Position numbers and translations under genes: made by a program. The notes beneath the pieces were generated by a model. The model did not search any database. It was not told the DNA's origin and saw nothing but the letters and a program-made list of their open reading frames with translations. A stretch of DNA of 64,000 nucleotides from Candidatus Daviesbacteria bacterium (lineage in GTDB: Bacteria > Patescibacteriota > Microgenomatia > Daviesbacterales > UBA10151): assembly GCA_016432425.1 (NCBI GenBank), contig CP066688.1, positions 446,211-510,210 on the forward strand. The letters run 5' to 3'. Positions 10,110 through 55,405 of the stretch are shown one piece after another (positions within the stretch are counted from its first letter, which is position 1; the number at the start of each line of letters is the position of its first letter).

Positions 10110-10111
10110 TT

Positions 10112-13322: not shown

Positions 13323-13368
13323 AAACGCGAGAAGCACTTTATTTAAAATTTTATGAGATAATTACCCT

Positions 13369-28988: not shown

Positions 28989-29489
28989 GTGCTTTGTTTA
29001 TTTAAAAAACTTAATTTTAAGATGCCTTGGGAATTATTAATTAAATTAGTTGAGTTTCATTTAAATAACCACTGCGATATGACAGTAGGTCTTACCAGTT
29101 ATTTGACAGATTATACAACCGATGTAGGAAAAATCTGGATCAATGGGTTCACGAATGATATTGTTAAATGTCTAGGAAGAGAAGAATATGATACTAATTT
29201 AAATAAAAACATTATTCCGTTAACGAGCGCAGGAATATATATAGTAAATTCACAAAAATTTAAAAATATGTACAAAACGTTTTTAGAAGATAATCAAAAT
29301 ATAAAAGAAACTCAGGTAGAGATGAGAGATCAATTATTACCTTGGTTGATTGGAGAAAAGATTTTCAAAGTAAAGGGTTTTGATTTAAGAGGAGAGATAC
29401 TAGATATCGGAAATTATGAAAGAATTGTTTATGCAAAAAAACATTGGAAGAAATATACTATAAACAATCAGGAAAATAGCCCTCTATGA
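28989..29489 (+). pseudogene. N-terminally truncated sugar-phosphate nucleotidyltransferase remnant
   Basis: 166 aa resembling only the C-terminal half of G1P-nucleotidyltransferases (LTSAGIYIV...GFDLRGEILDIGNYE). Preceded by a ~670-nt AT-rich non-coding gap. Confidence 0.4.
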
Positions 29490-30598
29490 AATATGGGAAA
29501 TTAATAGGTATAGATGCAAATGAAGCAAATCTAATATCTGAACGTGTTGGATCAAATAAGTTAGCATTCAATTTACTTAGGGCGTTGTATAAGTTAAAGG
29601 TGCAATATAATTTTGTGGTGTATCTCTCGAAGCCTCCGTTAGATGATTTGCCGAATCCCAAGGCAAATTGGCAGTACAGAGTTATTTCTCCTGCTAAGTT
29701 TTGGACCCAATGGAGGTTACCGTTAGATCTATATGCTCATAATCCTCGTCCGGATATTTTTTTAAGCCTAGGCCATTATGCACCAAGATTCACTCCGATC
29801 AAAAATATAGTTACTATCACAGACCTAGGTTTCCTGACCTATCCCGAACAATTAACCAGAAAAGATCTTTGGCAATTAAAACATTGGACTGACTATTCTG
29901 TTAGGTCGGCAGGGCATATTATAGCAATTTCTGAATATACGAAGAAAGATATAATAAAGTTCTATCACATTAATCCAAATAAAATATCAATAATTTATCC
30001 TGGGTACGATAAAGATCTGTTTAGACCACTAAATAATCAAAAAGAAATAGAGAAAATACTCCTTAAATACAATATTACTAAACCATACTTATTATTTATA
30101 GGTGCTCTTAAACCAAATAAAAATTTAGAGAGATTAATCACCGCATTTAGTAGGTTGGAGTACAAAAATTTTAATCTAGTTATAGTAGGGAAAAAGGGCT
30201 GGTTTTATGAATCAATTTTTGAAACTGTCTCTAAATTAAAACTTGAGGATAGAATAATTTTTACAGGATTTGTGCCAGATATTGAACTGCCTTTTCTACT
30301 AAATGCAGCTAGATTGTTTGTATTTCCATCTCTGTATGAAGGTTTTGGGATGCCAGTCATAGAAGCTATGGCGTGTGGTACCCCAGTAGTAACTTCTAAT
30401 GTGGCTAGCCTGCCAGAGGTTATCGGTGATGCTGGTGTGACAGTTGATCCTTACAGAGTTGAAGATATAACAGCTGGTATTATTGATGGTTTAGAAAAAC
30501 ATATATTTTATAGCGAAAAGGGTCTAAAAAGAGTAAAATCATTTAGTTGGGATCAAAGTGCAAAACAATTAATAAAAATAATAGAACGCTTCTTATGA
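29486..30598 (+). CDS. Glycosyltransferase family 4 (GT-B, retaining)
   Basis: EGFGMPVIEAMACGTPVV signature of GT4; 370 aa. Confidence 0.85.
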   Translation: MKYGKLIGIDANEANLISERVGSNKLAFNLLRALYKLKVQYNFVVYLSKPPLDDLPNPKANWQYRVISPAKFWTQWRLPLDLYAHNPRPDIFLSLGHYAPRFTPIKNIVTITDLGFLTYPEQLTRKDLWQLKHWTDYSVRSAGHIIAISEYTKKDIIKFYHINPNKISIIYPGYDKDLFRPLNNQKEIEKILLKYNITKPYLLFIGALKPNKNLERLITAFSRLEYKNFNLVIVGKKGWFYESIFETVSKLKLEDRIIFTGFVPDIELPFLLNAARLFVFPSLYEGFGMPVIEAMACGTPVVTSNVASLPEVIGDAGVTVDPYRVEDITAGIIDGLEKHIFYSEKGLKRVKSFSWDQSAKQLIKIIERFL

Positions 30599-30604
30599 CC
30601 ATCT

Positions 30605-31714
30605 ATGGTGTCATCTAATAAACAAATAAATTTTTTCTACTCTAAGACAACAAGTAAAAATGTTCGGATTATTATAGGGATTGATTCAATATTTAACCTG
30701 GATAAATTTCTCAAAAATTTTTATGCAGATATGATTTTTATTATTTGTGATGATAATGTAGCTAATCTTTACGCGAAAAAGATTCAGAAGATAATTAAAA
30801 GATTGCCGGTGTATTTAGTGACTCATTCACCTAATGAAAAAAGCAAAAATCTCAAGACTGCTAAAAAAATCATGGATATAATCATAAAAGAAGGAGGTAG
30901 CGAAAATAGTATTATATGTTCATTGGGCGGAGGTGTTACTGGAAATATTGCAGGTTTTGTCTCTTCGGTTTTATTTAGAGGTCTTACATTAATTCATATA
31001 CCAACTACACTTCTGGCACAATTAGATAGTGCTCCAGATGTAAAGCAATCTCTCAATACGATTCTTATAAAAAACGGTATAGGTTCATATAAGGCACCGG
31101 ATTTAGTATTAATAGATCCTCAATTTATGATCTCATTATCGGAGCGTGATATTAGATCTGGTTATGCAGAAGCGATAAAACATGCTTTTGCTCAAGATTT
31201 AGATTTTATTAAATTTATAGCCAGTCTTTTTAAGAACAACGATTATATAAACCTAAATTATTTAGAGAAAGTTATTATTAAGACGATCTCTTTGAAGATA
31301 TATCACTGGAAGAATGTTCCGACTATGTGGAATGATATGGGTAAAGTTGAGAGACTCACTCATCTGGGTCATACCATAGGTAAAGTATTAGAAATAATTG
31401 ATTTGGGGTATCTTACTCACGGAGAAGCAATAGCGCATGGTATGGTCATAGAATTTTATATATCATTCAAGCTTGGATATCTAGATATAGCTAAAGTTAA
31501 AAAAGCTCAAGAAATTATGAATGATATGGGACTGTTATTTCCTCTAAGTAAAAAATATACTCAGAATAAGATTATGAAGTTACTATATTCATCATCTTCA
31601 GATAAAGAACCATTGGTTGCTCTTTTACAAGATTTTGGTAATCCCGATACAATCTCTTTGCATTTACCTAGAGCAATAACAAAGGAAGCATTAAAATGGT
31701 ATTTTTCATTATAA
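30605..31714 (+). CDS. 3-Dehydroquinate-synthase-like sugar phosphate cyclase family protein
   Basis: LGGGVTGNIAGFVSSVLFRGLTLIHIPTTLLAQLDSA closely follows the DHQS core (GGGV.GD..GF....Y.RG...I.VPTTLL.Q.DS), but the substrate-binding DSSVGGKT is replaced by DSAPDVKQS. Confidence 0.75.
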   Translation: MVSSNKQINFFYSKTTSKNVRIIIGIDSIFNLDKFLKNFYADMIFIICDDNVANLYAKKIQKIIKRLPVYLVTHSPNEKSKNLKTAKKIMDIIIKEGGSENSIICSLGGGVTGNIAGFVSSVLFRGLTLIHIPTTLLAQLDSAPDVKQSLNTILIKNGIGSYKAPDLVLIDPQFMISLSERDIRSGYAEAIKHAFAQDLDFIKFIASLFKNNDYINLNYLEKVIIKTISLKIYHWKNVPTMWNDMGKVERLTHLGHTIGKVLEIIDLGYLTHGEAIAHGMVIEFYISFKLGYLDIAKVKKAQEIMNDMGLLFPLSKKYTQNKIMKLLYSSSSDKEPLVALLQDFGNPDTISLHLPRAITKEALKWYFSL

Positions 31715-34742: not shown

Positions 34743-35318
34743 ATGATAGACAAAAGAAAGCTGGTTTTAAATGCTAAACAGTTAAGGAAAGGTCTTCCGA
34801 CTACCGACTACGGACTACAGAAGTTACGCAAGTCTGTAGACCGAAGACGGAATGCAATTTATATTGTCCTGGACAATGTGTTGGATACCTATAATATTGG
34901 CTCCATTTTCAGGCTGGCTGATGCGGTGGCTGCTAAAAAGATTTACCTTTGTGGGGGGACAGAAACACCGCCCAATCACAGGATCAAAAAAGCCTCTATT
35001 AATACTACTGAGGTGGTGGAGTGGGAGTATTATGCTTCGGCAAGCGAAGCGATCTCGAAACTTAAATCTCAAAACTCGAATCTACAAGTTATAGCTATTG
35101 AACAAGTTGAGGAATCAGTCCAATATGACAAATTTGAGTACAAATTGCCCCTGGCTTTGGTAGTGGGGCATGAAACTTCGGGAGTTTCACCAGAAGTTTT
35201 GAAAATAGTGGATGGAGTGGTAGAACTACCCATGTTTGGCGTGAACAAATCCCTTAACGTGATGGTTTCTTTAGCGATAGTTTTATATGAAGTTATCGAA
35301 AGGACTATCTCTAAATAA
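34743..35318 (+). CDS. SpoU/TrmH-family RNA 2'-O-methyltransferase
   Basis: VLDNVLDTYNIGSIFRLADAV and the C-terminal SPOUT knot region (VVGHETSGVS...LNVMVSLAIVLYE). Confidence 0.7.
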   Translation: MIDKRKLVLNAKQLRKGLPTTDYGLQKLRKSVDRRRNAIYIVLDNVLDTYNIGSIFRLADAVAAKKIYLCGGTETPPNHRIKKASINTTEVVEWEYYASASEAISKLKSQNSNLQVIAIEQVEESVQYDKFEYKLPLALVVGHETSGVSPEVLKIVDGVVELPMFGVNKSLNVMVSLAIVLYEVIERTISK

Positions 35319-35323
35319 CCTAT

Positions 35324-36334
35324 ATGGAAATTCTAATTTTGTATAACAGAGCGAGGGAGCTCAAAAAGGGTATACCTTCAGATTTGATCTGTGAGCAGGA
35401 AATGAAAATTATTGTTCCACTGGTAGCTGATCTATTACAAAATAAAGGCTACGGTGTTCAAACATTGAGGACAGAGTTTGGTTTGTGGGAGCAACTCAAA
35501 AAAAGAAGAAAGAGTGTTGATTTGGTTTTAAACCTTGCTGAGGGATTTGGAGGAGGTAATTCTGATGAACCCTTAGTTCCAGCAATGCTAGAAGCTCTAA
35601 ATGTACCATTTACAGGTGCATCTGCTCGTAATATGTATTTTACTCTTGATAAAGAGAAGACGAAGGTTTTTTTACATCAAGCAGGTATTCCTATTCCAAA
35701 ATGGCAATTGTTTAGAGATGAAACAACTGATTTATCACCTGATTTACAATTCCCACTTATAGTTAAACCAGTTAGAGAAGAAGCTAGTATAGGAATATAC
35801 GAAGATAGCGTAGTAACTACGGAGGTTGAGATGAAAAGAAAAGTTTCTCATACTCTTGCAAGGTATAAACAGCCTGCATTGGTAGAACAGTATATTGAAG
35901 GCAGAGAATTATCTGTTGGAATCATTGGTAACTATCCAGATCTGGATGTATTACCTCCACTAGAGTTTTTGTTTGAAGATGCAACGTCACCCCTGCAAGC
36001 ATTTAGATCTTATGAATACAAATGGGGAGGCAGGAAAGAACAAATGGTTCGAGCAAATATTACTCGAGGTTTACATGATCAATTAGTGGATTATGCTAGG
36101 GTCGCTTTTATAGAGACAGAATGTCAGGACTACGCACGAATGGATTACAGAATAGATAAAGAAGGCAATCCTTATTTATTAGAAGTTAATTATAATCCTG
36201 GTATTGGTCCAAATACTCATGGATTAAATAACACTTTAACTATGATGGCTTCTTTTAAAGGATTATCATTTGAAGATATGGTGGAAGATATTATTCTGTC
36301 TAGTGCTAAAAGATATGGTATAGCTACTTCATAA
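35324..36334 (+). CDS. ATP-grasp enzyme of the D-alanine-D-alanine ligase family
   Basis: Ddl-like central and C-terminal ATP-grasp motifs (FPLIVKPVREEASIGI..., EQYIEGRELSVGIIGN, ARMDYRIDKEGNPYLLEVN). Confidence 0.65.
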   Translation: MEILILYNRARELKKGIPSDLICEQEMKIIVPLVADLLQNKGYGVQTLRTEFGLWEQLKKRRKSVDLVLNLAEGFGGGNSDEPLVPAMLEALNVPFTGASARNMYFTLDKEKTKVFLHQAGIPIPKWQLFRDETTDLSPDLQFPLIVKPVREEASIGIYEDSVVTTEVEMKRKVSHTLARYKQPALVEQYIEGRELSVGIIGNYPDLDVLPPLEFLFEDATSPLQAFRSYEYKWGGRKEQMVRANITRGLHDQLVDYARVAFIETECQDYARMDYRIDKEGNPYLLEVNYNPGIGPNTHGLNNTLTMMASFKGLSFEDMVEDIILSSAKRYGIATS

Positions 36335-37653
36335 TGGTCAAAACTATAATTATCGCTAATGTAGCAGAGGCATTTAGTAGATCAATAGCCAAGATTAGAA
36401 GCAGAAAAGAAAAAACTCTTAGATTAGCTATTGAACAATCATTATCCCAACGCAGTATGTTTTGGGGCGGGGATAATAAAGTAGTAATAACACCTTATTT
36501 TATACCAAAATTGTTATTCCATAGGAACTCAATATTTTGTAAATATAAAAATACTGTAAACGTAACTCCTGTCAATGAGAGCATCAATTTATGTGAAGCT
36601 ATTCTTAAAGATAAAAAACTGTATGATTGGCTGAAAGTAATAATAAAAAATAACCCAAAGGTCAACCTTTCTCCCTATAGCTTTACAAATTTTTTCCTAG
36701 AATTGACCCGGAAGCTCAAAGAAGATAATCTGATATTTAAAACTGATGCTATACCGGATAGTAATACTGATGTTGTTTCTTACCTTGATTCTAAATCTGG
36801 TTTCCGGCTTGAACTTCTAAAGCTGCAAAAACAGTTTCCTGAAATAAAAATTCCTTATGGTTTTATATGTAACAATCCAGAAGTGGCTTTAAGAATAGTC
36901 GAACAATTCTATAAGCTTAATGCTTCTTGTGTATTAAAAGCTAATTTAGGTGAGTCGGGGTGGGGATTATTAACAATAAAACCTGGGGTGTTTAAATCTC
37001 TTATAGAACTGAGCAATAGTATAAAGTCTACTATTATTAACGAATCTATTTGGCAGAATGACTCTATAATCATAGAAGAACTAATTTTGCACACGAGTTC
37101 ACCCTCTGTAGAGGTGTTAGTTACTGCAAAAGGTCCAAAAATCACATATATTTGTCAACAAATAATTGATGATAAAGGAACATTTTCTGGAATACTTTTA
37201 GGAAAAAACACTATTAAAACCTCGCTGATTAAAAAATTGATCCATATCTCTTCAATAATAGGAAAAAGATATTGGCAAATGGGTTATAGAGGTTATTTTG
37301 ATATCGATTTTGTCATCTCATATAACGGTACTGCTTTTGCAATAGAAACAAACATGAGAAGGACTGGTGGTACTCATGTCTATGATTTTGCTTGCAAAGT
37401 TTTAGGAAAAAATTGGTTTGAAAAAGCAGTTATTTTATCTAAAGATAATTTTATTTATGGAGATGAAATTATTGATGGAAAAGAGATTTTTAAAAGAGTA
37501 AGTAAAATGTTATTTACAAGTAAAATTGGGAAAGGGGTAGTAATTTCGTTTATTAGTAAATCTATCCCCTTATTAGGATATTTCATCATAGGGGATAGTT
37601 TAGTGGAGGCAAGTAATCTAAAGAGTAGATTTGAGAGTTTAGTTAAGCTATAA
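36334..37653 (+). CDS. ATP-grasp domain protein (carboxylate-amine ligase-like)
   Basis: CVLKANLGESGWGL glycine-rich loop and the downstream ATP-grasp pattern; start overlaps the upstream stop. Confidence 0.45.
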   Translation: MVKTIIIANVAEAFSRSIAKIRSRKEKTLRLAIEQSLSQRSMFWGGDNKVVITPYFIPKLLFHRNSIFCKYKNTVNVTPVNESINLCEAILKDKKLYDWLKVIIKNNPKVNLSPYSFTNFFLELTRKLKEDNLIFKTDAIPDSNTDVVSYLDSKSGFRLELLKLQKQFPEIKIPYGFICNNPEVALRIVEQFYKLNASCVLKANLGESGWGLLTIKPGVFKSLIELSNSIKSTIINESIWQNDSIIIEELILHTSSPSVEVLVTAKGPKITYICQQIIDDKGTFSGILLGKNTIKTSLIKKLIHISSIIGKRYWQMGYRGYFDIDFVISYNGTAFAIETNMRRTGGTHVYDFACKVLGKNWFEKAVILSKDNFIYGDEIIDGKEIFKRVSKMLFTSKIGKGVVISFISKSIPLLGYFIIGDSLVEASNLKSRFESLVKL

Positions 37654-37665
37654 TTTATCCGTTTT

Positions 37666-38178
37666 ATGAAGAATACAAATTTATTGCCTGTTAAACCTTT
37701 TCAAGAAAGTTTAAATAAGGGTTATTGTGGACCAGCAAGCCTAAAAATGGTGCTTGATTATTATGGAGTTAATAAAACTGAAAAGGAGCTAGCTAAGCTT
37801 GCTAATACCACTACTGATTTAGGGACTAATGATCAATCACTAAAGAAAGCTGCAGAGATACTAGGTTTTAAGGTTGACATTAAAAACTATTCTTCTTTTG
37901 AAGATACAAAAAATTGGCTTGATAAAAAAGTTCCAGTAATCGTAGATTGGTTTACTAGAGGCAGAACGGATTATGATGAGTCAGAAGTAGCAGATGGGCA
38001 CTACTCAGTAGTAGTAGGATTAGATGAAGAATTTATCTATTTACAAGATCCAGAGATTGGAAAATTAAGAAAGATTAAGAAAGATGATTTTATGCGTGTA
38101 TGGTTTGATTTTACTGGTGAGTATATTAGCTCATGGCCAGAGATGATTATTAGACAGGTAATAGCCATTTACAGATAG
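37666..38178 (+). CDS. Peptidase C39-like (papain-fold cysteine peptidase) domain protein
   Basis: NKGYCGPASLKMVLDYYGV catalytic Cys motif of the C39/C39_2 family with a downstream His (DGHYSVVVG); 170 aa, stand-alone. Confidence 0.6.
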   Translation: MKNTNLLPVKPFQESLNKGYCGPASLKMVLDYYGVNKTEKELAKLANTTTDLGTNDQSLKKAAEILGFKVDIKNYSSFEDTKNWLDKKVPVIVDWFTRGRTDYDESEVADGHYSVVVGLDEEFIYLQDPEIGKLRKIKKDDFMRVWFDFTGEYISSWPEMIIRQVIAIYR

Positions 38179-38215: not shown

Positions 38216-39004
38216 ATGACCAGCCTTTACAACTTGCTTGTCGATAGGTTGTCTCATCTGGATTTTACCAACCCCTTAAGTTTATTAGATTTAATAATTG
38301 CCATTTCTTTAATAGTAGGAACGCTCGTTTATTTAAGCCGTTTCTCGGTTTTTAGGGTGGTGTTGGGCACTTTATTCTTATTTGGTTGCGCAATTTTGTT
38401 TTTGTTGGGAGGGTTTTTACTAACCGGCTTACTTTTTGTCCTCGTTGCCAATCTAATTTTAATTAGTTTGCCGCTAATTTTTGCTCCTGAGGTGCGTCAT
38501 TATTTGGAAAAACTGGGCAGATTTCCTTTTTTGCATCTTCCTTCTGTGACCACTACCCAAAAAACCCAATATTTTGTCCGTAATTTAGTGGGGGCTGTTT
38601 ATGAGCTGGCTGAGAGAAAAACCGGGGCTTTGATAGTCTTGGCCAGGAAAGCCGGTTTAGGAGAGACAATTGAGACCGGAGTAATTATTGATGCCAAGTT
38701 TGGCTCCAAACTGCTCTCCACCATCTTTTTTAACAAAAGTCCGCTCCATGATGGGGCAGTAGTCATCAAAAACAGCCGTATTCTGGCGGCCAGTTGTCTG
38801 TTGCCCCTGCGGGGAGAAGTCAAGCTGGACCCGCCCTTTGGCACCAGGCATAAATCCGGTTTATCTTTGACCCAAGATACTGATGCGGTGGTAATTATCA
38901 TTTCTGAGCAGCGAGGAGAGGTGTCTTTGGCGGAGAACGGTAAGCTGGAAATTAACCTAGACAGGGGGACTTTGATCCAAAAATTAAATAAATTACTGGG
39001 CTAG
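38216..39004 (+). CDS. cdaA: Diadenylate cyclase CdaA (c-di-AMP synthase), membrane-anchored
   Basis: Three N-terminal TM helices plus a DAC domain (ALIVLARK...HDGAVVIKNSRILAASCLLPL...RHKSGLSLTQDTDAVVIIISEQRGEVSLA). Confidence 0.85.
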   Translation: MTSLYNLLVDRLSHLDFTNPLSLLDLIIAISLIVGTLVYLSRFSVFRVVLGTLFLFGCAILFLLGGFLLTGLLFVLVANLILISLPLIFAPEVRHYLEKLGRFPFLHLPSVTTTQKTQYFVRNLVGAVYELAERKTGALIVLARKAGLGETIETGVIIDAKFGSKLLSTIFFNKSPLHDGAVVIKNSRILAASCLLPLRGEVKLDPPFGTRHKSGLSLTQDTDAVVIIISEQRGEVSLAENGKLEINLDRGTLIQKLNKLLG

Positions 39005-39603: not shown

Positions 39604-39796
39604 AAGATAGGCTTGACTTAAACTCTAATTTCCGTTAAAATTCTTGCGCACATTAACAACCGAAAAGTTTTTTAATAAACCACTTTTCGGGATTTAAATC
39701 CGCCAGTGGGCGGATTTTTTGTTTCGACTCATCCCAATGAATTGGGATTCGCTCAACACTATAGTCCTGAGTGAACGAAGTGAATCGAAGGATTAA

Positions 39797-39820: not shown

Positions 39821-39927
39821 TTGACAAAGTTTTTGTCAATTCCAATAAAATGGATAACTTCTTTAGGATTTGAGAGTTTGCTCTTCGACGAAGTCGAAGC
39901 AAAATCGAAAAAATTCGAAGAATTTTT

Positions 39928-39968
<41 letters not shown>

Positions 39969-40815
39969 TTTAAATATGCAAGTCAAAGGGATCGCAAGAT
40001 AACTGGCGGACGGGTGAGTAATGTATAGGAATCTACCTTGAAGTGGGACATAGCTTCTCGAAAGAGGAGGTAATTTCCCATGTGAACGCAAGTTCAAAGT
40101 CGTAAGACGCTTTAAGATGAGCCTATATTCTATCAGCTTGTTGGTGGGGTAATGGCCTACCAAGGCGACGACGGATAGCTGGTCTGAGAGGATGGTCAGC
40201 CACAATGGCACTGAGATACGGGCCATACACCTACGGGTGGCGCAGTTGGGAATTGTTGACAATGGGCGAAAGCCTGATCACGCGACGCCGCGTGGAGGAT
40301 TGAAGGCCTTCGGGTTGTAAACTCCTTTTATGTGGGAAGATTATGACGGTACCACACGAATAAGCACCTGCTAACTACGTGCCAGAAGCCTCGGTAATAC
40401 GTAGGGTGCAAGCGTTATCCGGATTCATTGGGCGTAAAGAGTTGCGTAGGCGGCTCGGCGCATTCTGCTTGAAAGCCTCTGGCTCAACCAGAGATTTGGG
40501 CAGAAGATGGCCGAACTAGATGGTTTGGGAGGGTGCTGGAACCTGTAGTGTAGCAGTGAAATGCGTTGATATTACAGGGAACACCAAAGGCGTAGGCAGG
40601 CACCTAACAAACCCATGACGCTGAGGCACGACAGCTAGGGGAGCGAAGCAGATTAGAGACCTGCGTAGTCCTAGCCGTAAACGATGTCCGCTAGTTACCC
40701 CGCCTTTGGCGGGGCGACGACGCTAACGGAAAAACCTCACCAGGGTTTGACATGCAGATGCTAAGCCTATGAAAGTAGGCCTCCTTCGAGGGTTCTGCAC
40801 AGATGCTGCATGGCT

Positions 40816-41633
40816 AATCCCGATTGAATCGGGATGATGGCCGCTCCTTAAGTAATTAAGGAGAAAAATAACCAACCCAAAACGGTGAAGCCCTACTTTT
40901 GGCGTAAGCCAACAAGCAAGATTTCTTACTTGATTTTCGTATTACTTTCGGGTAATGTGAAATTAAGGGGTAATACCGTGGGAAGCTGGTTAGTGTGAGG
41001 TTAGATGTTTGAGGTCGGAAGATGGATAAAGAGATTGGAAGTTTGAAATTGGTAGGATACAATCAAAGTAATGTGATCCAAAGTTTTAAAGATCTAAAAG
41101 TATATCAGGAATCTTATGAATTGGCTTTAATAATTAACAGAGCAATTTTGAGATTGCCTAATAGCGAGAGATTTGATTTGGTAGATCAGATGCGAAGAGC
41201 GTCAAAATCTATTCCAGCAAATATTGCTGAAGGATATGCTAAAAGATTGTCTGAGAAAGAATTTAAAAGATATCTTTTATCAGCAATTGGATCGTGTAAT
41301 GAAATGGTTGTACATATCAGTTTTGCAAAAGATTTAGGTTTTTGGAAATCTGAATTTTGTGAGGATTTACTTAAACGATATGATATCGTAGGTAAACAAC
41401 TTACAAGATTGTTGCAAAATTGGAAAGCCTATCCAACTTCTAAAGTCTAATTTCACAATCTACCTTCTAATTTCTAACATCTAACTTCTATCTAACATAG
41501 CCCCGTAGAGACTGATTCCGCCAGCTGGCGGATGAGAATAGCCAAATGAGGTTATTCAGACGGTTGGCTCCCTACCTTAAATAAAGGGGGAGAAGGTATA
41601 GTCCATGCTCCTAGTAATAGGCAGATTTACATG
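40816..41633 (+). mobile_element. Group-I-like intron in the 16S rRNA between GCATGGCT and GTCGTCAGCTCG
   Basis: Exon sequence GCTGCATGGCT|GTCGTCAGCTCG is restored exactly when 40816-41633 is removed. The 5' exon ends in U and the insert ends in G. The 3' part shares blocks with 23S intron 3 (ccccgtagagact, gtatagtccatgc, ttacatg). Confidence 0.65.
41022..41450 (+). CDS. Four-helix-bundle protein of the 23S-rRNA-intervening-sequence family
   Basis: DLKVYQESYELALIINRAI...FDLVDQMRRASKSIPANIAEGYAKRLSEKEFKRYLLSAIGSCNEMVVHISFAKDLGF matches the IVS four-helix-bundle family pattern; encoded inside the 16S intron. Confidence 0.75.
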   Translation: MDKEIGSLKLVGYNQSNVIQSFKDLKVYQESYELALIINRAILRLPNSERFDLVDQMRRASKSIPANIAEGYAKRLSEKEFKRYLLSAIGSCNEMVVHISFAKDLGFWKSEFCEDLLKRYDIVGKQLTRLLQNWKAYPTSKV

Positions 41634-42238
41634 GTCGTCAGCTCGAGGCGTGAGCTGTACCCTTAAGTGGGACATCGAGCGCAACCCGCACCGTATGTTA
41701 AATAATCCATACGGAACAGCCCCAGTTTTTACTGGGAAGGAAGGTGCGGATGACGTCAAGTCAGCACGGTTCTTACACCCTGGGCTACACACACCCTACA
41801 ATGGCGAAGAACAACGAGTTGCAAGCTGGTAACAGCAAGCTAATCTCTGAAATTTCGCCTCAGTTCAGATCGAGGGCTGCAATCCGCCCTCGTGAAGTCG
41901 GAATTGCTAGTAATCGCGGATCAGCAGGCCGCGGTGAATACGTTCTCGGGTCTTGTACACACCGCCCGTCAAGCGAGCAAAGTTGGGGGCGCCCGAATGC
42001 CTATGTATGTAGGCAGAAGGTGAAACCAGCGATGAGCGCTAAGTCGTAACAAGGTATCCCTAGCCGAAGCTGGGGATGGATCACCTCCTTTCTGGAGATT
42101 AGGTCAAACTAATGATTACTTAAATAATGTATCGTTATGGTATGTCATAGTTCGCAGTAGTTTGATCCATTGATCACGTATGTTCACGCATATGATGATA
42201 GAGAGTTTGAATATTCTCTCTTTAAAGAAAAATATTCC

Positions 42239-42374: not shown

Positions 42375-42740
42375 TTATACTCGTAAATTTCTAATTTCAG
42401 TAGAAGAGGAGAGCTGGTAAATTTTCTCTCCCAGTTTGTAATCAAAAACAAATCTCGGTAGAATTTTTACTTTTATTCCAGCTTTTAAAAAATCTTTTCG
42501 GTGATTTTTATCCATTGGATCAGCTCGATACCAAGTATTAGTATTAGAATCTTTTAATTTCAACTGTTTTTTAAAATATTTTACCCAATTTTCTGGGGAA
42601 TTTTGATCTATTAATGGAAGTATTTGATATGGTTTAGTAGTGGTTTTTAATTCCTCCTGAAGCTTCTGGACTCTTACTTGATAAGTAGACAGACTTGGAT
42701 CCTGAGTAGAACCAATACCAATAATAATTCCTATTGTCAT
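42375..42740 (-). CDS. Hypothetical protein (possible C-terminal extension or partner of the LAGLIDADG endonuclease)
   Basis: 121-aa ORF whose start overlaps the stop of the upstream LAGLIDADG gene (ATGA); no motif. Confidence 0.3.
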   Translation of the reverse strand: MTIGIIIGIGSTQDPSLSTYQVRVQKLQEELKTTTKPYQILPLIDQNSPENWVKYFKKQLKLKDSNTNTWYRADPMDKNHRKDFLKAGIKVKILPRFVFDYKLGEKIYQLSSSTEIRNLRV

Positions 42741-43399
42741 TCGAGAAATTTAGCCTTTCTTTCAAGATATAATTTGCAATTAGGGTAGTATATAAAATTC
42801 AAAAGTTTCTTAGTATCTTTCTTTGCATATTCTAACTTCCATTGGTTGCCATTACCATAAGAACATATTTTCCTTGGGAAAAGTTCTAACTCTTTGGTTA
42901 ATAAATCTCTCAATGAATTCAAAAACAATGGACTTCCGGAGGTAAAATTACATCTAAGATCAGTTTGTTTGCGATGATCTTTAGTTCTTAAATAAGTTGT
43001 AAAAAATACACTTCCATCGCCATCAAAATAGCCCCTAATAAAATCAGCTAGAAATTCTTTTTGGATTTTAGGTAACCTAATTACTAGACTTTTTTTTCGG
43101 AGGCCACCTAATAAAAGTAAATCTTTGTATAAAATTTTAGAATGTACGATTAGGGTAGAAGATTTTTCAAGCTTTCCTTTTCTGCGATAACGGAAAATAG
43201 GGGAATTAGAATTCAGAACCCCTTTTACTTGCTGTAGGATTGATTCATCTAGCGAAGAGAAAGTAATTCTATAAGATCGCTCGTGTCTCATATATCCATC
43301 AGCTAACCAGTATCCAAAAACATAGGCCATATCTGGGGACCATTTTGAGAAGAAATTTTCGTTCAAGGTGTATTTTCTAGAGTGGTATTTAAGAAGCAT
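42737..43399 (-). CDS. Free-standing double-motif LAGLIDADG homing endonuclease
   Basis: Two LAGLIDADG motifs, YVFGYWLADGY and FIRGYFDGDGSV, in a 220-aa ORF between the 16S and tRNA-Cys. Confidence 0.8.
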   Translation of the reverse strand: MLLKYHSRKYTLNENFFSKWSPDMAYVFGYWLADGYMRHERSYRITFSSLDESILQQVKGVLNSNSPIFRYRRKGKLEKSSTLIVHSKILYKDLLLLGGLRKKSLVIRLPKIQKEFLADFIRGYFDGDGSVFFTTYLRTKDHRKQTDLRCNFTSGSPLFLNSLRDLLTKELELFPRKICSYGNGNQWKLEYAKKDTKKLLNFIYYPNCKLYLERKAKFLE

Positions 43400-49702: not shown

Positions 49703-50205
49703 TGAGCGTAAATTGAATGTACAACATTAATGCATACGGTGGATGCCTTGGTCGAAAGTACCGATGAAGGACGCACTTGACCGCGATAGTCTGCGAGGAG
49801 CTGCCAAGAAGCTTTGATCCGCAGGTTTCCGAATGGGATAACCCCTCCTTTTTTGGGGGATCCTGTCATGAATACATAGTGGCAGGAAGGGCACGCACTG
49901 AACTGAAACATCTAAGTAAGTGCAGGAAAAGAAATCAACAGAGATTCCCCAAGTAGCGGCGAGCGAAACGGGAACAGCCTAAAGTTATTTGCGCTTCGCG
50001 CAAGTGAAGACAAATAACGGGTAGTGGGGTCTGTAATATGGTATCAGATGAGGATAGCTGAAATGTCTGGAAAGATATGCCAAAGAACATGATAGCTGTG
50101 TAAGCAAAATTCAAATCTGGCCTAACGGATACCCGAGTAACTCAGGACACGTGTAATCCTGGGCGAATCTGTGGCGACCATGCCATAAGGCTAAATATAC
50201 TTTCG

Positions 50206-50245
<40 letters not shown>

Positions 50246-50841
50246 AAGGGCGAGATGCCCTGTGAAATAGTACCTGAAACCGTATGCTGACAAGCAGTGG
50301 GAGCTGGAGGCTAGATGTTGGACGTTAGAAGCTGGAAAATATCTAGCATCTAATTTCTAACTTCTAGCTTCTAGTAACCGCGTGCCTATTGAAGAATGAA
50401 CCGGTGAGTTATCGTTATTTTCAAGTCTAAGCAAGTTTACTTGTGCAGGCGCAGTGAAAGCGAGGGTTAATAGCCCGCATGCCCTGAGTTTATCGAAGGG
50501 TAAGAAGATGACGTTAGACCCGAAACCGAGTGAGCTAACCATGTCCAGGGTGAACCCGCCTTAATCGGCGTGGGGAGGCCCGAACCCGTATCTGGATCAA
50601 AAGGTTGGGATGAGGTGTGGTTAGGGGTGATATGCCTAACGAACTCGGAGATATAGGGGTAGAGCACTGGATGGTCTTTCCGCCGCAAGGCGGGAGATCA
50701 ACCAAACTCCGAATACTACTGCGATTATCTTGAGGAGTCAGTCCGATCCGGCTAAGCGGAGCGGGCCTAAGGGAAACATCCCAGATCAATAGCTAAGGTC
50801 CCTAAAACAGGTTAAGTGTTAAAGGTAGTCTTGATCCTTAT

Positions 50842-50898
<57 letters not shown>

Positions 50899-51776
50899 TG
50901 GTCTACTACGGATTGGGGCGCCGACAATGTATCGGGGCTCAAACCTGTTACCGAAGCTTTGGGGGTGCACCATATGGTGCACCCGGTAGAGGAGCGTCCG
51001 CCAAACAGTGAAGGTGAGTTGTAAGACTTGCTGGAGATTGGCGGAGTGAGAATGCCGGTATGAGTAGCGTATTGATGTGAAAAACATCATCGCCGTAAGC
51101 CCAAGGTTTTCCACGCAACGTTAATCGGCGTGGAGTTAGTCGATCCTAAGGTCAGGCCAAATGGCGTAGCCGATGGACAACAGGTTAAAATTCCTGTACT
51201 TTTGTTTTCTGTCAAAGACTTCAAGGGTTGACGGAGTGGGAAAATTTTCTACCCTGAGTGAGGAGCGTCAGCTCCGAATCGAAGGGTCTAAGCAACAAGT
51301 TAGTGGAGGCAGGCAAATCTACCTCCATGTGTCATCAGTTTCTCTTGAGCAATCGAGCGAGCTGGTGGCTTTAAAAAATACGAGTTGTTATGGCGTAAGA
51401 GAAGATTTTTCTGTTTCCAAGAAAAGACTCGTGAAGGAGAAAATGAAATTCGTACCAAAACCGACACAGGTGGGTAGATTGAGTATATTAAGGCGATCGG
51501 GAGAACTATCCTTAAGGAACTCGGCAAAATAGCTGGACGTAACTTATTGGAGATGTCCTGTCTTTCATCGCAAGATGGAGGACCTCAGTTAATGACGCTA
51601 AGCGACTGTTTATCAAAAACACAGCTCCCTGCTAAATCGAAAGATGATGTATAGGGGGTGACACCTGCCCAGTGCCAGTAATTTAACACTTCAGTTGATC
51701 CCTTTCCGCAAGGTCAGGAGGAGGTTGGGGTCTAAGATCTGGTGAACGGCAGCAGTAACTATAACTGTTCTATGGT

Positions 51777-52533
51777 GAGATTCGTTGCCTTAGAAGTAAA
51801 AATCCGTGAAAGCGGATGGTGTGTTTTTGAAATTCTGCTATATGCTGGAAACTCTGTAGTATCCTAAGCTAGTTATTGATTTTTGGTAAAATTTCGGGTA
51901 ATACTGAAATAATGTCTAATTTGATAACTAATAATGTTCTAGGTGCAGACAATCAGCAGGAAAGACTAGTGGAAATTGGTTGGATAGTTGGTTTTGTAGA
52001 TGGAGAAGGTTGCTTTTCAACTGGAATTGTTCAACAAAATGATCGTCCCGGAAGAAAAGGATACAAACTTCGTTATCAAGTATTCTATGAATTTGCAGTA
52101 ACTCAAGGAGCAAAAAGTATTGATTCTCTTGAGAAAATACACAAATACTTTGGAGTAGGTAGCGTAGTAATTAATAGACGATATGATAATCATAAAGAGC
52201 ATTTATATCGTTATATTGTTAGAAAGAAGGAAGATTTGTTGAATGTAATAATTCCTTTCTTCCAAAAGTATCATTTGCAATCTTCTAAGCAAAAAGATTT
52301 CGAAAAGTTTGTCCAAATTGTTAGTCTAGTTGATCAAAAAAGGCATCTAGAAGCGGATGGATTAATCGAAATATTAAAAATTGCTGAAACCATGAACCGA
52401 CAAAAATCCCGCCAAGATCTAATTAGAATCCTCAGAGACTAATACGCAGAAGTCCAATGAAAATTGGACAAGATAGAGTCCGAACTTTATGGCGACATAA
52501 AGAGTCTAGGTTTATCCTAGGAATAACATTTTT
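51777..52533 (+). mobile_element. 23S group I intron 1 (insertion near E. coli ~1923, GGT|AGCGAAATTCC)
   Basis: Exon 1 ends ...ataactgttctatggt and exon 2 resumes aagcgaaattccttgtc; the ~757-nt insert contains a LAGLIDADG ORF. Boundary uncertain by 2-3 nt. Confidence 0.6.
51876..52442 (+). CDS. LAGLIDADG homing endonuclease (intron-encoded)
   Basis: IVGFVDGEGCF LAGLIDADG motif; 188 aa inside intron 1. Confidence 0.8.
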   Translation: MIFGKISGNTEIMSNLITNNVLGADNQQERLVEIGWIVGFVDGEGCFSTGIVQQNDRPGRKGYKLRYQVFYEFAVTQGAKSIDSLEKIHKYFGVGSVVINRRYDNHKEHLYRYIVRKKEDLLNVIIPFFQKYHLQSSKQKDFEKFVQIVSLVDQKRHLEADGLIEILKIAETMNRQKSRQDLIRILRD

Positions 52534-52654
52534 AAGCGAAATTCCTTGTCTGGTGAGTTCAGACCCGCACGAAAGGTAGAACGACTTAGCGACTGTCTTG
52601 AGGATAGACCCGGCGAAATTGCAATGGCTGTGAAGATGCGGCCTTCCCATACTT

Positions 52655-52690
<36 letters not shown>

Positions 52691-53042
52691 ACTCTGATTT
52701 AAAAGTTAAATTGTGTAGCGTAGGAGGGATCCTGAGAGCAATCGAAGGAAACAATGAAACACCTCTCTTTTTAAGTTTTAAGTCTCACCATGGGCCCTAG
52801 AAAAACGGGCCATGGGACCAAGTCTGGCGGGCAGTTTTACTGGGGCGGTACCCTCCAAAAAAGTAACGGAGGGGTACAAAGGTACACTTGTCTCGAATGG
52901 AAACCGAGACTGAAGCGTAAAGGTATACAGTGTGCTTGACTGCGAGAGGTACATCTCGAGCAGGGACGAAAGTCGGTCTTAATGATCCTCACGTAGCTTA
53001 TGGGAGCGCGTGGGCTTAACGGATAAAAGCTACCCCGGGGAT

Positions 53043-53924
53043 ACAAATGTGTCCTGTCCCGATATATAATGAAATCGGGACGATAATGTGGCTAATAACG
53101 GTGAAACCTATCAATTGGTGGTTTGGTCTTACCAAATGCATCGAGACAATTAGTAGGCAATACCGTGGGAAGTCGAAGGTATGGACAAGATACAAAAGGC
53201 AATAGTTATTGGAACTATTTTAGGAGACGGTTTTTTGCAAAAAACTGGCAAAAATAATGCTCGTTTAAGGCTAGAACATAGTTTAAAACAGCAGGATTAT
53301 CTTCTCTGGAAGTGTCAAATTTTAAATAATTTCTTTCAGAAAAAGCCAAAGATTTTAACAAGAACCAATCTGAAATTTGGTAAAAGTTACCAATATATCA
53401 GAAACCAATCCTATTCTGGTTTGGAGTTTGGAAAACTACATCAACTTTTTTATGTTGATGGTAAAAGGGTTGTCCCAAATGAGATATCCAAACTTCTCAA
53501 AAATCCAATGAGTTTGGCTGTTTGGTTTATGGATGATGGGTATTACTACTTTAGAGATAAAATAGCTTATATCTATTTACCTGAACTAGACTCGGATTCA
53601 ATAAATAACTTATTAATTGCTTTGCGAATGAATTATGGTTTATCTCCTCAACTAAAAATTAAAAAAAGAGGGGAATATGTTTTAAACTTTAGCGTAAAAG
53701 ATACAGCAAAGTTAATTCAAATAATTAAACCATATATCATAAAATCTATGTCCTACAAATTACCTTTTGACCCCGTATCGACTGAACCTAGTAGCAAAGA
53801 GTAAATATCATTTATTCTTGGGTGAGATGTGAGGTTAAATCTTGCATCATATGCCGCACTCCAGCACCAAATTGGTGTTGGATGAAGATATAGTCAGTAC
53901 TAACAGTGATGTTAGATTTTTATG
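53043..53924 (+). mobile_element. 23S group I intron 2 (insertion in CCCCGGGGAT|AACAGGCT, E. coli ~2449)
   Basis: Removing 53043-53924 restores CCCCGGGGATAACAGGCT exactly. The upstream exon ends in U and the insert ends in G. Confidence 0.7.
53181..53804 (+). CDS. Double-motif LAGLIDADG homing endonuclease (intron-encoded)
   Basis: Motifs IIGTILGDGFLQ and VWFMDDGYYY; 207 aa inside intron 2. Confidence 0.8.
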   Translation: MDKIQKAIVIGTILGDGFLQKTGKNNARLRLEHSLKQQDYLLWKCQILNNFFQKKPKILTRTNLKFGKSYQYIRNQSYSGLEFGKLHQLFYVDGKRVVPNEISKLLKNPMSLAVWFMDDGYYYFRDKIAYIYLPELDSDSINNLLIALRMNYGLSPQLKIKKRGEYVLNFSVKDTAKLIQIIKPYIIKSMSYKLPFDPVSTEPSSKE

Positions 53925-54068
53925 AACAGGCTAGTCTTGCCCTACAGTCCACAAGGACGGCAAGGTTCGGCACCTCGATGTCGGCTCATCGCATCCTCCT
54001 GCTGAAGTAGGTGGGAAGGGTCGGGCTGTTCGCCCGTTAAAGCGGTACGCGAGCTGGGTTCAAACCGT

Positions 54069-54792: not shown

Positions 54793-55261
54793 CGTAAGAC
54801 AGGTTGGTCTCTATCCAGTATGGGCGTTTTGATTCTTGAGGGGAGTTGTCTCTAGTACGAGAGGACCGAGATGAGGAAACCTCTAGTGTGCCTGTTGTAC
54901 CAAAAGTGCAGCGCAGGGTAGCTACGTTTCTAACTGATAAGTGCTGAAAGCATCTAAGCACGAAGCAGGCCCCAAGATAAGGAATCTTTAAGATCCCTGG
55001 AAGACTACCAGGTCCCGCAAGGGAATCCTGAGAGCAATCGAAGGATTGATAGGTTGGCGGTGTAAGTGCTGTAAGGTATTTAGCCTACCAATACTAATGA
55101 TCGTTGTTGATACATTCGACTAATGCTCAGTGTCAATACTGAGTGAAATCGAATGTATTGAGATTTTTTGACTCACAGCCTTCTTTTAAAATACGTATTC
55201 ACATTTCAGGGCGCAAAATTAGTCAAATTTGACTTATCATCCTTATTTGTTTTATACTAAA

Positions 55262-55378
55262 AGCCTCGGTGGTTGGAGCGGTAAGGTTCCACCTGATTCC
55301 ATCCCGAACTCAGTAGTGAAACTTACCAGCGGGGACGATAATGCATCCGCAAGGTTGCGTGAAAATACCTCACTGCCG
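55262..55378 (+). rRNA. 5S ribosomal RNA (3' half divergent)
   Basis: ccacctgattccatcccgaactcagtagtgaaac matches the universally conserved 5S helix II/III-loop C region. I could not pair the termini convincingly, so the ends are approximate. Confidence 0.5.
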
Positions 55379-55405
55379 GATTTTTAGAAAGACAGGTGAA
55401 AATGT

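Follow-up and report, generated by a model that had tools for sequence, protein, structure and literature searches.

Two ATP-grasp ligases and a stand-alone C39-like peptidase form a co-inherited cassette typical of Patescibacteria

Analysis of a 64-kb stretch of DNA (the window), part of an 820-kb contig from a Candidatus Daviesbacteria MAG, revealed a three-gene core, here called A, B and C, that recurs elsewhere as an uncharacterised cassette typical of Patescibacteria. The most likely function of this cassette is to build and trim a short non-ribosomal peptide. In the fuller form of this reading, the co-inherited genes form and trim amide bonds without a ribosome or an NRPS, probably on a cell-wall-type diamino-acid peptide, a proposal to which we give slightly less than even confidence. 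The genes and their surroundings in the window are as follows.

34743-35318, + strand: SpoU methyltransferase gene, with a 5-nt gap to A
35324-36334, + strand: gene A, ATP-grasp Ddl paralog by sequence, 336 aa (ORF list; Pfam, NCBIfam and PDB searches)
36334-37653, + strand: gene B, ATP-grasp of the PGM1/BesA clade by predicted fold, 439 aa (ORF list; Foldseek)
37666-38178, + strand: gene C, soluble stand-alone C39-like papain-fold cysteine peptidase, 170 aa (ORF list; Pfam, PDB and Foldseek searches)
38216-39004, + strand: cdaA, 3' of C, within the same-strand run
+ strand: 186-aa ORF, at the end of the same-strand run that begins at the SpoU methyltransferase gene
39696-39717: terminator-like site of the run SpoU-A-B-C-cdaA-186-aa ORF

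The ORF list and the junction sequences confirm that A, B and C are three consecutive, tightly packed genes, as had been predicted originally. A and B overlap by 1 nt at position 36334, where the junction reads ...TCA TAA TGG... and an A of the TAA stop codon is also the A of the start codon of B; the spacer between B and C is 12 nt long (37654-37665). The GC contents of the three genes (A 0.358, B 0.308, C 0.331) lie 5-10 points under those of the flanking genes (0.41-0.46), and the SpoU methyltransferase gene, cdaA and the 186-aa ORF are not conserved partners of the triad at other loci. The window holds the three-gene core only, as a low-GC insert between the SpoU methyltransferase gene and cdaA. 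Another locus (L164), in which a SpoU gene directly precedes C, was considered as an 'empty site' of the SpoU-A-B-C arrangement and rejected: its SpoU protein is of another subfamily than that of the window and shares just 27% identity with it.

The three families were found adjacent in around 36 of the 80 genome loci retrieved through B, in 14 of the 53 informative metagenome loci retrieved through C and in both contigs retrieved through A. C lies directly 3' of B in every close triad examined, and nearly every A that was found adjoins B and/or C, not mur/fts genes. Across 23 triads, the pairwise identities of A, B and C are correlated (Spearman 0.44-0.66). The arrangement is more than chance: the three genes diverge together as a co-inherited unit, and the recurrent adjacency and correlated identities support the earlier view of them as one unit. 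Nearly all triad loci come from Patescibacteria, with A and C sharing 60-75% identity between distant lineages, and one copy of A (L089) is interrupted by a transposase. A full-text literature search found the triad described nowhere. Patescibacteria (CPR) have genomes of about 1 Mb and have lost most biosynthesis, and no such system had been expected in a reduced symbiont genome; this expectation was overturned, as the cassette is almost confined to Patescibacteria and common there. That genomes reduced to about 1 Mb should yet conserve an operon of 3-7 genes that would spend ATP on peptides of non-proteinogenic diamino acids suggests that it likely matters for the envelope or for host interaction.

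Protein A matched Pfam Dala_Dala_lig_C (9e-30), with no Dala_Dala_lig_N match in the Pfam search, and its top PDB matches were Ddl enzymes (6e-20). It scored under the NCBIfam cut-offs for Ddl (PRK01372, 145.1 versus 243 bits; TIGR01205, 136.2 versus 245.65), whereas the canonical Ddl of a related contig (L161), used as a control, scored above them (NF002528, 354.8 versus 262; TIGR01205, 306.2 versus 245.65). Alignment was made to E. coli DdlB, with the residue numbering checked. In this alignment A retains E15, K97, K144, E180, E187, K215, R255, D257, E270 and N272, and the ATP/Mg and catalytic set (K97, K144, E180, K215, R255, D257, E270, N272) is kept in the window protein and 29 orthologs. 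Identity among A orthologs is 60-69%. Three substitutions, S150 to A, Y216 to W and Y210 to R, are invariant across the same 29 orthologs. In the window protein, S150 and Y216 correspond to A154 and W234, so that the E15-S150-Y216 hydrogen-bond triad is broken with E15 retained. The family alignment also has G for S281, another residue of the D-Ala sites, an equivalence that is less certain because this loop carries an insertion. At the N-terminus the GGxSxE motif is replaced and an 11-residue insertion is present. A is thus a Ddl paralog with its catalytic residues kept and its specificity residues altered. Retention of the E15 and R255 equivalents implies a product made of two amino acids, and the altered specificity positions beside an intact catalytic set suggest that this dipeptide is not the standard D-Ala-D-Ala.

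At the sequence level B has weak matches, to Pfam ATP-grasp_3 (0.005) and to NCBIfam BesA (9e-9) and LdmS (9e-8), the latter two far under cut-off; with 34.6 bits against a cut-off of 750, B falls outside the BesA equivalog family by sequence. Its PDB sequence matches (BesA, 8ynd and PGM1) span residues 314-366 only. The AF2 model of B (pLDDT 94.4) was matched over its full length by 8ynd, PGM1 (3wvq) and BesA (8yi6) in Foldseek, with E-values of 2e-27 to 4e-23 and TM scores of 0.72-0.81 over 420-465 columns; the next-best folds reached a TM score of only about 0.55. Some B orthologs carry a precomputed Pfam PF18604 PreAtp-grasp domain. On the basis of the modelled fold, B is assigned to the PGM1/BesA (pre-ATP-grasp) clade of peptide ligases, and its invariant residues (K202, E248, E260, D323, D325, E338, N340 and R342) fit an active ATP-grasp enzyme. 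The family is small, with 554 representatives at E<=1e-3 among 1.84 billion, and is called 'hypothetical protein' wherever a source names it. More distant paralogs of B (25-30% identity, L026-L080) were followed as a functional lead and set aside, their neighbours being lineage-specific housekeeping synteny. The comparison of both ATP-grasps with profiles and structures that had been suggested therefore separates them: A matches Ddl models only, and B matches BesA/LdmS weakly by sequence and PGM1 by fold.

The Pfam, NCBIfam and PDB searches also bore out the reading of the locus as tandem ATP-grasps followed by a stand-alone C39-like peptidase with no transporter domain. C matched Pfam Peptidase_C39 (PF03412; 3.6e-16, 59.6 bits versus a cut-off of 22) and C39_2 (2.3e-14), and in the PDB the ComA peptidase domain (3.6e-7) and the pseudomurein endoisopeptidase PeiR (1.3e-6). 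The best Foldseek matches of its AF2 model (pLDDT 84) were the C39 domains of PCAT1 and ComA together with PeiR (TM 0.63-0.71). The catalytic triad, flagged originally as the point to check, is intact as part of a full set, with Gln13, Cys21, His112 and Asp128 invariant in 30 orthologs (mean column identity 76%). This set indicates that C is probably catalytically competent; its substrate we infer. Of the two ATP-grasps, then, A alone is Ddl-like, as a divergent paralog, and C has both its His and its Asp. The sequence of C has no N-terminal hydrophobic segment, the 170-aa protein is not fused to an ABC exporter and none is conserved nearby, and small-ORF scans of the window triad +-5 kb and of about 38 triads found no conserved GG-leader ORF near C.

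The C family exceeds 2,700 clusters, and identity among its members is 64-85% across the whole superphylum. Orthologs of C (64-82% identity) lack A/B upstream at 39 of 53 informative loci and in all five long contigs sampled, so C has a role independent of A/B. The commonest neighbour of C is a NUDIX hydrolase gene (21 of 80 loci), an association that a ligase/peptidase cassette leaves unexplained. Several other leads were discarded: B and C have no relatives among the viral contigs of IMG/VR that would point to a phage origin or lysin, A, B and C give no PADLOC matches to anti-phage defence systems, and a cut ORF upstream of C at one locus (L092) was rejected as a fragment of B.

At 8 of 16 well-flanked triad loci we found at least one of SbnA/SbnB, diaminobutyrate transaminase or lysine-2,3-aminomutase-like (KamA-like) genes, and in this half of the loci the cassette is part of a tight operon that reaches seven genes, as in L088. 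The scores were 380 versus a cut-off of 350 for SbnA, 302 versus 327 for SbnB and 429 versus 402 for the diaminobutyrate transaminase family. SbnA/SbnB lead to L-2,3-diaminopropionate, and lysine-2,3-aminomutase to beta-lysine. The KamA-like enzyme retains counterparts of both Asp residues of 2A5H that are reported to be the ligands of the lysine epsilon-ammonium group (Lepore 2005; Ruzicka & Frey 2007). The presence of these genes at about half of the well-flanked loci makes basic diamino acids likely building blocks. None of them lies in the 64-kb window, so the amino-acid substrates for its own A, B and C must come from elsewhere. A DHQ-synthase-like gene in the window (30605-31714) had suggested an analogy with mycosporine-like MysC/MysD, which was dropped because this gene is conserved near no other triad.

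Genes of cell-wall metabolism also occur near C and the triads. An S66 LD-carboxypeptidase-like gene adjoins C in at least three independent arrangements, and S66 genes lie near triads at five loci (L027, L028, L041, L087, L098). On the contig with the canonical Ddl (L161), a MurF-like gene comes first, then Ddl and, after a 6-nt gap, C; in L122, VanW is followed by C. A convergent MurD gene lies beside the triad in L020/L158, and a PBP and an SLT-like gene flank it in L085. It is not unusual for a peptidoglycan gene to lie within 6 kb by chance. The adjacencies that count are the direct ones, to S66, MurF-Ddl and VanW, and the cell-wall association is guilt by association from small numbers.

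From homology we infer three steps for the cassette. A would condense two free amino acids into a dipeptide that, to judge from its residues, differs from standard D-Ala-D-Ala; the retained Glu would bind the first amino acid through its amino group, and the retained Arg the second through its carboxylate. B, as members of its fold family suggest, would activate a carboxylate as an acyl phosphate and join it to the free amine of a peptide or diamino acid, giving an extended or branched product. C, as an intact cytoplasmic Cys-His-Asp peptidase, would then hydrolyse, or possibly transpeptidate, such an unusual peptide. Because C lies beside S66 genes and once after MurF-Ddl, and A is a Ddl paralog, the favoured product is of the cell-wall type, namely a stem-peptide, cross-bridge or muropeptide-like peptide, ahead of a natural product for secretion.

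Some observations run against this reading. The known stem residues of peptidoglycan are attached by Mur ligases and not by ATP-grasp enzymes, with Ddl and the D-Asp cross-bridge ligase as exceptions. The patchy distribution and low GC of the cassette resemble those of an accessory mobile trait, which would fit a secondary metabolite too. C occurs mostly without A/B, and the window lacks diamino-acid genes.

The original prediction linked paired ATP-grasps both to L-amino-acid-ligase pathways and to graspetide/microviridin-type RiPPs. The former link gains from the Ddl-like character of A, the PGM1/BesA fold of B and the non-proteinogenic amino-acid genes at related loci; the latter did not survive. 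In a graspetide pathway A and B would form side-chain lactones or lactams on a precursor and C would cut off its leader; the locus bears a superficial likeness to such a cluster, having two ATP-grasp genes beside one for a C39-like peptidase. No MdnB/MdnC-type graspetide ligase family was among the Pfam, NCBIfam or Foldseek matches of A or B, which are instead Ddl-like and PGM1/BesA-like. Scans for the proposed Thr/Ser/Glu/Asp-rich core peptides covered ORFs of 15-120 aa in the 5 kb on either side of the window triad, where none was precursor-like, and ORFs of 18-95 aa beside about 38 triads, where no precursor was conserved; the small ORFs that recur beside triads are shadow frames of conserved or accessory genes, and a few GG strings arose by chance. 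Graspetide loci do exist in CPR bacteria, and their partners (TPR proteins, cluster 23, zincins and SPASM enzymes; PMC8939145) differ from those of A-B-C. The graspetide reading is effectively refuted. The same scans bear on a hybrid with the logic of pheganomycin, in which C would cut a ribosomal precursor at a Gly-Gly-like site and B would acylate the N-terminus so exposed, using either an amino acid or the dipeptide product of A. The nearest structures of B (PGM1 and the Streptomyces peptide ligase) and of C (Gly-Gly leader peptidase domains), the adjacency of B and C in all close triads and the occurrence of C independently of A/B, as for a general processing peptidase, would all suit it. 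We nevertheless consider it quite improbable, given the lack of any small or GG-leader ORF conserved in those scans or present around the window triad and an identity between B and PGM1 of only 14-16%; L085 does have three small ORFs upstream of B, but these are conserved nowhere else.

A rather unlikely alternative is a secreted or stored small-molecule peptide, made as in the L-amino-acid-ligase pathways of rhizocticin, bacilysin and dapdiamide, for which DdaF and BacD are precedents. RhiM/RhiC is a further precedent (PMC13579937). Diaminopropionate, diaminobutyrate or beta-lysine would here be joined by A and B into a di- or tripeptide that might act as a cationic antimetabolite, metal chelator, polyamine substitute or osmolyte in the epibiont-host relationship, with C as a maturation, turnover or self-protection hydrolase. 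Two sequential ATP-grasp ligases cluster with non-proteinogenic amino-acid genes at 8 of the 16 well-flanked loci, and the patchy distribution, island-like low GC, variable flanks and transposase-disrupted A of L089 also fit. However, this clustering, and with it any building-block gene, is missing from the window, the triad has no conserved exporter or regulator, the 60-75% identity of A and C between distant Patescibacteria is unusually constrained for secondary metabolism, and orthologs of C are common at loci that lack A/B, where they adjoin salvage and cell-wall peptidases. It is very improbable that A serves this genome as its housekeeping D-Ala-D-Ala ligase and nothing more, with B and C as unrelated neighbours. 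Several sources do label A orthologs 'D-alanine--D-alanine ligase', all catalytic residues are conserved and the 64-kb window has no second ddl. This is outweighed by scores of 136-145 bits against cut-offs of 243-246 (306-355 for the canonical Ddl of L161), the replacement of hallmark S150 and Y216 by A and W in 29 of 29 orthologs, the adjacency of A to B and/or C and not mur/fts, the joint divergence of the three genes and their shared low GC. Hardly credible is a role of C as a thiotemplated BtrH/CtaG-type transacylase that takes an aminoacyl chain made by the ATP-grasps from a carrier protein and passes it to an acceptor. C has a weak Pfam BtrH_N match (9e-4) and CtaG among its Foldseek matches (E ~1e-5, TM ~0.6), and a pairing of an ATP-grasp with a papain-like transacylase is known from closthioamide synthesis (PMC7183216); yet the C39, ComA and PeiR matches are much stronger, and the conserved neighbours include neither a carrier-protein family nor one of phosphopantetheinyl transferases.

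The favoured reading, a cassette that makes and trims a short non-ribosomal peptide, can be extended to a broader proposal that we consider clearly unlikely: that Patescibacteria carry a clade-specific, Mur-ligase-independent route in which A and B assemble a diaminopropionate, diaminobutyrate or beta-lysine peptide for the envelope, and that the near-universal, conserved C is the cytoplasmic (iso)peptidase of the clade for wall-type peptides. If true, this route and C would be an unrecognised branch of cell-wall peptide chemistry and salvage in ultra-small epibiotic bacteria. A is often misnamed D-Ala-D-Ala ligase and C bacteriocin double-glycine peptidase, and correcting these names affects metabolic reconstructions of CPR cell walls. 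The cassette is also a source of new ATP-grasp ligases, probably of unusual substrate scope, and C defines a highly conserved family of soluble cysteine peptidases.

Compared with known systems, A is closest to Ddl and its VanA-type specificity-shifted paralogs, with which it shares the ATP-grasp fold, the aligned ATP/Mg and catalytic residues and the E15/R255 equivalents. Unlike A, Ddl has S150, Y216, Y210 and the GGxSxE motif and lacks the 11-residue insertion, and A, below the family cut-offs, is linked to B and C and not to mur/fts genes. B shares with PGM1 (3wvq), the Streptomyces ATP-grasp peptide ligase (8ynd) and BesA (8yi6) the full-length fold including the N-terminal pre-ATP-grasp part, and the ExN/R Mg-ATP motif region, at an identity of only 14-16%; it occurs in Patescibacteria, where its partners are the genes for a Ddl paralog and a C39-like peptidase and not PKS or amidinotransferase genes. 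C is matched best, in sequence and in fold, by the C39 leader peptidase domains of ComA and PCAT1, with an identical Gln-Cys-His-Asp set; in contrast to them, C is stand-alone and soluble, with no transporter or GG-leader substrate gene nearby, and its strong conservation (64-85%) is unlike that of fast-evolving bacteriocin peptidases. Second come PeiR, PeiW and PeiP (sequence E 1.3e-6, fold TM 0.67-0.71), papain-fold enzymes that act on wall peptides, cutting the isopeptide bond at the side chain of a diamino acid; these are phage lysins with wall-binding repeats, a domain that C lacks. As a whole, A-B-C has an organisational analogy only, with no sequence-level membership, to glutathionylspermidine synthetase/amidase (an ATP-grasp-like synthetase and a CHAP amidase), cyanophycin synthetase/cyanophycinase and the murein-peptide operon ykfABCD of B. 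subtilis, which includes an S66 peptidase and a papain-fold NlpC/P60 peptidase. It resembles them in the logic of one or more ATP-dependent amide ligases encoded next to a thiol or serine hydrolase that acts on the same kind of bond, and the ykfABCD pairing of an S66 with a papain-fold peptidase is also seen here beside C.

The three genes lie exactly where the original prediction had placed them, and a six-frame ORF list confirmed both the single base common to the stop codon of A and the start codon of B (TAATG) and the 12-nt spacing between B and C. They belong to a same-strand run with the following layout (A, B and C as in the ORF list):

34743–35318, + strand: SpoU-family methyltransferase, opening the run, with a 5-nt gap before A
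35324–36334, + strand: A, Ddl-like ATP-grasp protein, 336 aa
36334–37653, + strand: B, PGM1/BesA-type ATP-grasp protein, 439 aa
37666–38178, + strand: C, C39-like peptidase, 170 aa
38216–39004, + strand: CdaA diadenylate cyclase (cdaA), 3' of C
after cdaA, + strand: 186-aa ORF
39696–39717: terminator-like hairpin, after the 186-aa ORF and immediately 5' of the 16S rRNA gene

Scanning species-representative genomes with a B alignment, with neighbours identified by local ORF calling and phmmer, retrieved 80 loci; A, B and C are adjacent in around 31 of these, and a further few are interrupted by contig ends. The three normally run in the order A-B-C, with B-C-A in L007 and L017, so that C directly follows B in every close triad, including one fetched via A (L085). 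Two A homologues, picked from contigs outside the B list, likewise fall within triads. Across 23 complete triads, the identities of A, B and C in pairwise comparison rise and fall together (Spearman 0.44–0.66), and the proteins have therefore been inherited together. Hosts include Daviesbacteria, Collierbacteria, Staskawiczbacteria, Yanofskybacteria, Moranbacteria, Paceibacteria, Minisyncoccia and unclassified Patescibacteria; a few bins are labelled otherwise. As the GC content of A, B and C in the window (0.36, 0.31 and 0.33) is low against that of the flanking genes (0.41–0.46), and the flanks vary from locus to locus, the cassette behaves like a mobile, accessory island. Some genomes carry two copies of C, as in a Staskawiczbacteria MAG (two locus tags) and in L089, which has another C-like gene 4 kb downstream. 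In this locus (5898–13732), A is reduced to a 94-aa remnant directly preceded by a Y1 transposase, and B and C after it are intact; L089 thus gives evidence for decay of the cassette and for paralogy of C.

The window, assigned by exact matches to database proteins to an 820-kb contig of a Candidatus Daviesbacteria (Patescibacteria/CPR) MAG, holds several other features. A second low-GC patch of similar composition (29486–31714) comprises two genes (GC 0.34 and 0.31), a putative glycosyltransferase-like ORF and a 3-dehydroquinate-synthase-like sugar-phosphate cyclase (Pfam DHQ_synthase, 3e-29); this pair showed no linkage to the triad in other loci. A 1084-aa ORF (20868–24122, minus strand) had no Pfam match at E<=0.001; after it, on that strand, come a 274-aa and then a 502-aa ORF, the latter with a pilin-like N-terminus. 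The 16S rRNA gene (39922–42091) is 2170 nt long where the model has 1533 nt, and it contains an insertion with an ORF (41022–41450) for a 142-aa protein (Pfam 23S_rRNA_IVP, 2e-29). In the region 49722–55381, the 23S rRNA gene measures 3372 nt against a 2925-nt model and encloses a LAGLIDADG_1 ORF (51876–52442), with two more LAGLIDADG ORFs (53181–53804 and 54241–54693) beyond the Rfam 23S end and before the 5S gene. Between the 16S gene and tRNA-Cys is a LAGLIDADG_3 ORF (42737–43399, minus strand), and the 7.6 kb separating 16S from 23S hold protein genes and tRNA-Ile/Ala.

Protein A matches Pfam Dala_Dala_lig_C (9e-30) and solved Ddl structures (6e-20), with no match to the Ddl N-terminal Pfam model, and its best NCBIfam scores (145 and 136 bits) fall below both Ddl cut-offs (243 and 245.65). 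We aligned it and 28 orthologues to E. coli DdlB, with the residue numbering verified. All ATP/Mg and catalytic residues are retained in these 29 proteins, as are the equivalents of E15 and R255, alongside three invariant substitutions (S150 to A, Y216 to W and Y210 to R) and a glycine at S281. As a control for CPR proteins being merely divergent, we scored a canonical Ddl met by chance on another CPR contig, L161, which exceeds the cut-offs of NF002528 (355 bits) and TIGR01205 (306 bits) and keeps S150, K215 and Y216; this argues that A is most probably a re-specified Ddl paralogue rather than a drifted Ddl. That A is the housekeeping Ddl itself is very unlikely: this control, the substituted hallmark residues and the linkage pattern of A contradict it, with the genome searched over the 64 kb of the window.

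Protein B gave marginal sequence matches to ATP-grasp_3, BesA and LdmS. Its AlphaFold model (pLDDT 94) was matched over the full length by Foldseek to the Streptomyces peptide ligase 8ynd, PGM1 and BesA at TM 0.72–0.81, with a clear gap to the next folds (PurK, LdmS and biotin carboxylases, around 0.55). Among its invariant columns are the ExNxR region and the flexible-loop lysine, the pattern expected of an active ATP-grasp. Of the two ligases, only A is Ddl-like, a divergent paralogue under the cut-offs, and B has the PGM1/BesA fold. The B family is small: of 1.84 billion representatives scanned exhaustively with HMMER, 554 pass E<=1e-3 and 152 pass E<=1e-30. In many Microgenomates, distant B paralogues (25–30% identity, L026–L080) are unaccompanied by A or C; such paralogues also come from a TM6 genome, Cyanobacteria, Chloroflexota, an archaeal bin and a Sulfitobacter isolate. 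Divergent variants in L040 and L060 have two B-like genes together with remote A-like and C-like genes.

Protein C passes Pfam Peptidase_C39 and C39_2 and aligns to the ComA peptidase domain and to the pseudomurein endoisopeptidase PeiR. The closest folds to its model (pLDDT 84) are the C39 domains of PCAT1 and ComA and PeiR, followed by staphopains, the phytochelatin-synthase-like Alr0975 and CtaG. The catalytic triad, the conservation of which the original prediction had left to be checked, is intact: all 30 orthologues aligned have Gln13, Cys21, His112 and Asp128 (mean column identity 76%). No signal peptide or membrane segment was found in C. Judged by their residues, all three proteins are catalytically intact members of their superfamilies. 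Orthologues are 60–69% identical to the window protein for A, just 35–45% for B and 67–85% for C. Databases name A as Ddl or 'ATP-grasp domain-containing protein' and C as 'C39 family peptidase' or 'double-glycine peptidase'; B is a 'hypothetical protein' wherever it is named.

C also occurs without its partners, with 2,713 clusters of C-like proteins against 140 for B in the same type of search. Five long contigs with C orthologues (68–74% identity) lack both A and B within 6–8 kb. A metagenome scan with a C alignment gave 80 loci, 53 of them with at least 1.5 kb upstream; B lies upstream of C in 14 of the 53, 13 of which also have A, and 39 are without. Stand-alone C has a NUDIX hydrolase neighbour in 21 of the 80 loci, often directly upstream, Peptidase_S51 in six and an S66 peptidase in five (directly adjacent in three); Ham1, HIT and CYTH proteins also recur. 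The NUDIX protein directly before stand-alone C is 147 aa long on many contigs among L093–L172 (for example, L115, L117, L119, L127, L147 and L150), and the order NUDIX-A-B-C is seen in L149 and L152. For C orthologues there is a link to S66 peptidases, seen in three or more independent arrangements, and a single one to MurF-Ddl. In this last case (L161, 2674–6495), an alpha/beta-hydrolase, a MurF-like Mur ligase and the canonical Ddl precede a C orthologue after a 6-nt gap, the clearest single link of the C family to the D-Ala-D-Ala branch of peptidoglycan precursor synthesis. A VanW protein lies directly 5' of C in L122.

Clustering of all triad neighbours gave four further families (c3–c6), identified by NCBIfam: SbnA (c5; 380 bits, cut-off 350), an SbnB-like protein (c4; 302 bits, cut-off 327), a member of the diaminobutyrate–2-oxoglutarate transaminase family (c3; 429 bits, cut-off 402) and a KamA-type radical-SAM aminomutase (c6). 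Both aspartates that hold the lysine epsilon-ammonium group in 2A5H are retained in the aminomutase, which points to beta-lysine rather than beta-glutamate as its likely product. In many genomes, the triad is embedded among enzymes for L-Dap, L-DABA and, probably, beta-lysine. In L088, SbnA, SbnB, the aminomutase, A, B, C and the aminotransferase form one tight seven-gene operon. Sixteen loci extend at least 4 kb either way; at least one of the four accessory genes is present in eight of them and none in the other eight. The window belongs to the group without them, as tblastn and phmmer found none of the four families in its 64 kb. Triads have other neighbours too: c8, which is S66 LD-carboxypeptidase-like, lies nearby in L027, L028, L041, L087 and L098, MurD is beside the triad in L020/L158, a PBP and an SLT-like gene in L085 and cdaA in the window. 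Because a wall gene can readily fall within a few kilobases by chance, we placed weight only on direct adjacencies.

Our leading explanation, held tentatively, is that the triad forms and trims an unusual peptide without the ribosome. A would make a non-standard dipeptide from two free amino acids, as suggested by its retained amino-group Glu and carboxylate Arg and its altered specificity residues. B, like PGM1, BesA and related ligases, would link a carboxylate to the amine of a peptide or diamino acid, and C may hydrolyse or transfer the same class of peptide. Within this explanation, a cell-wall-type peptide, to which we give about half of its weight, is slightly favoured over a secreted small molecule because A is a probable Ddl paralogue, C is associated with S66, MurF-Ddl and VanW and resembles PeiR, and both A and C are unusually strongly conserved.

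That the product is instead a secreted small peptide appears rather unlikely. Still less probable is a ribosomal peptide as the acceptor, in the manner of PGM1, which B resembles in fold; no precursor-like ORF, such as the short core-peptide ORFs for which the original prediction suggested a scan, lies within ±5 kb of the window triad, and none is conserved around the roughly 38 triads compared. The graspetide (microviridin-type RiPP) origin also proposed there is excluded, since neither ligase is of the graspetide type and a precursor was not found in these regions; the CPR graspetide loci of Makarova et al. (PMC8939145) have partners unlike those of the triad. We also rejected a defence system (no PADLOC matches), a phage lysin (no relatives on viral contigs) and BtrH/CtaG-type thiotemplated transacylation (no carrier protein conserved near triads).

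In full-text searches of the literature, we found neither the triad nor the seven-gene operon described. All components belong to known superfamilies and the logic of ATP-grasp amide ligases with a thiol hydrolase is known, and the cassette is therefore not a new category. It is a real and conserved cassette, specific to its clade and amenable to biochemistry, and its hosts are organisms in which whatever biosynthesis has been kept is informative. If C acts on the peptides made by A and B, the result would be a synthetase/hydrolase pair, an organisation with precedents in glutathionylspermidine synthetase/amidase, cyanophycin synthetase/cyanophycinase and the ykfABCD murein-peptide operon, which the triad resembles in organisation by analogy only.
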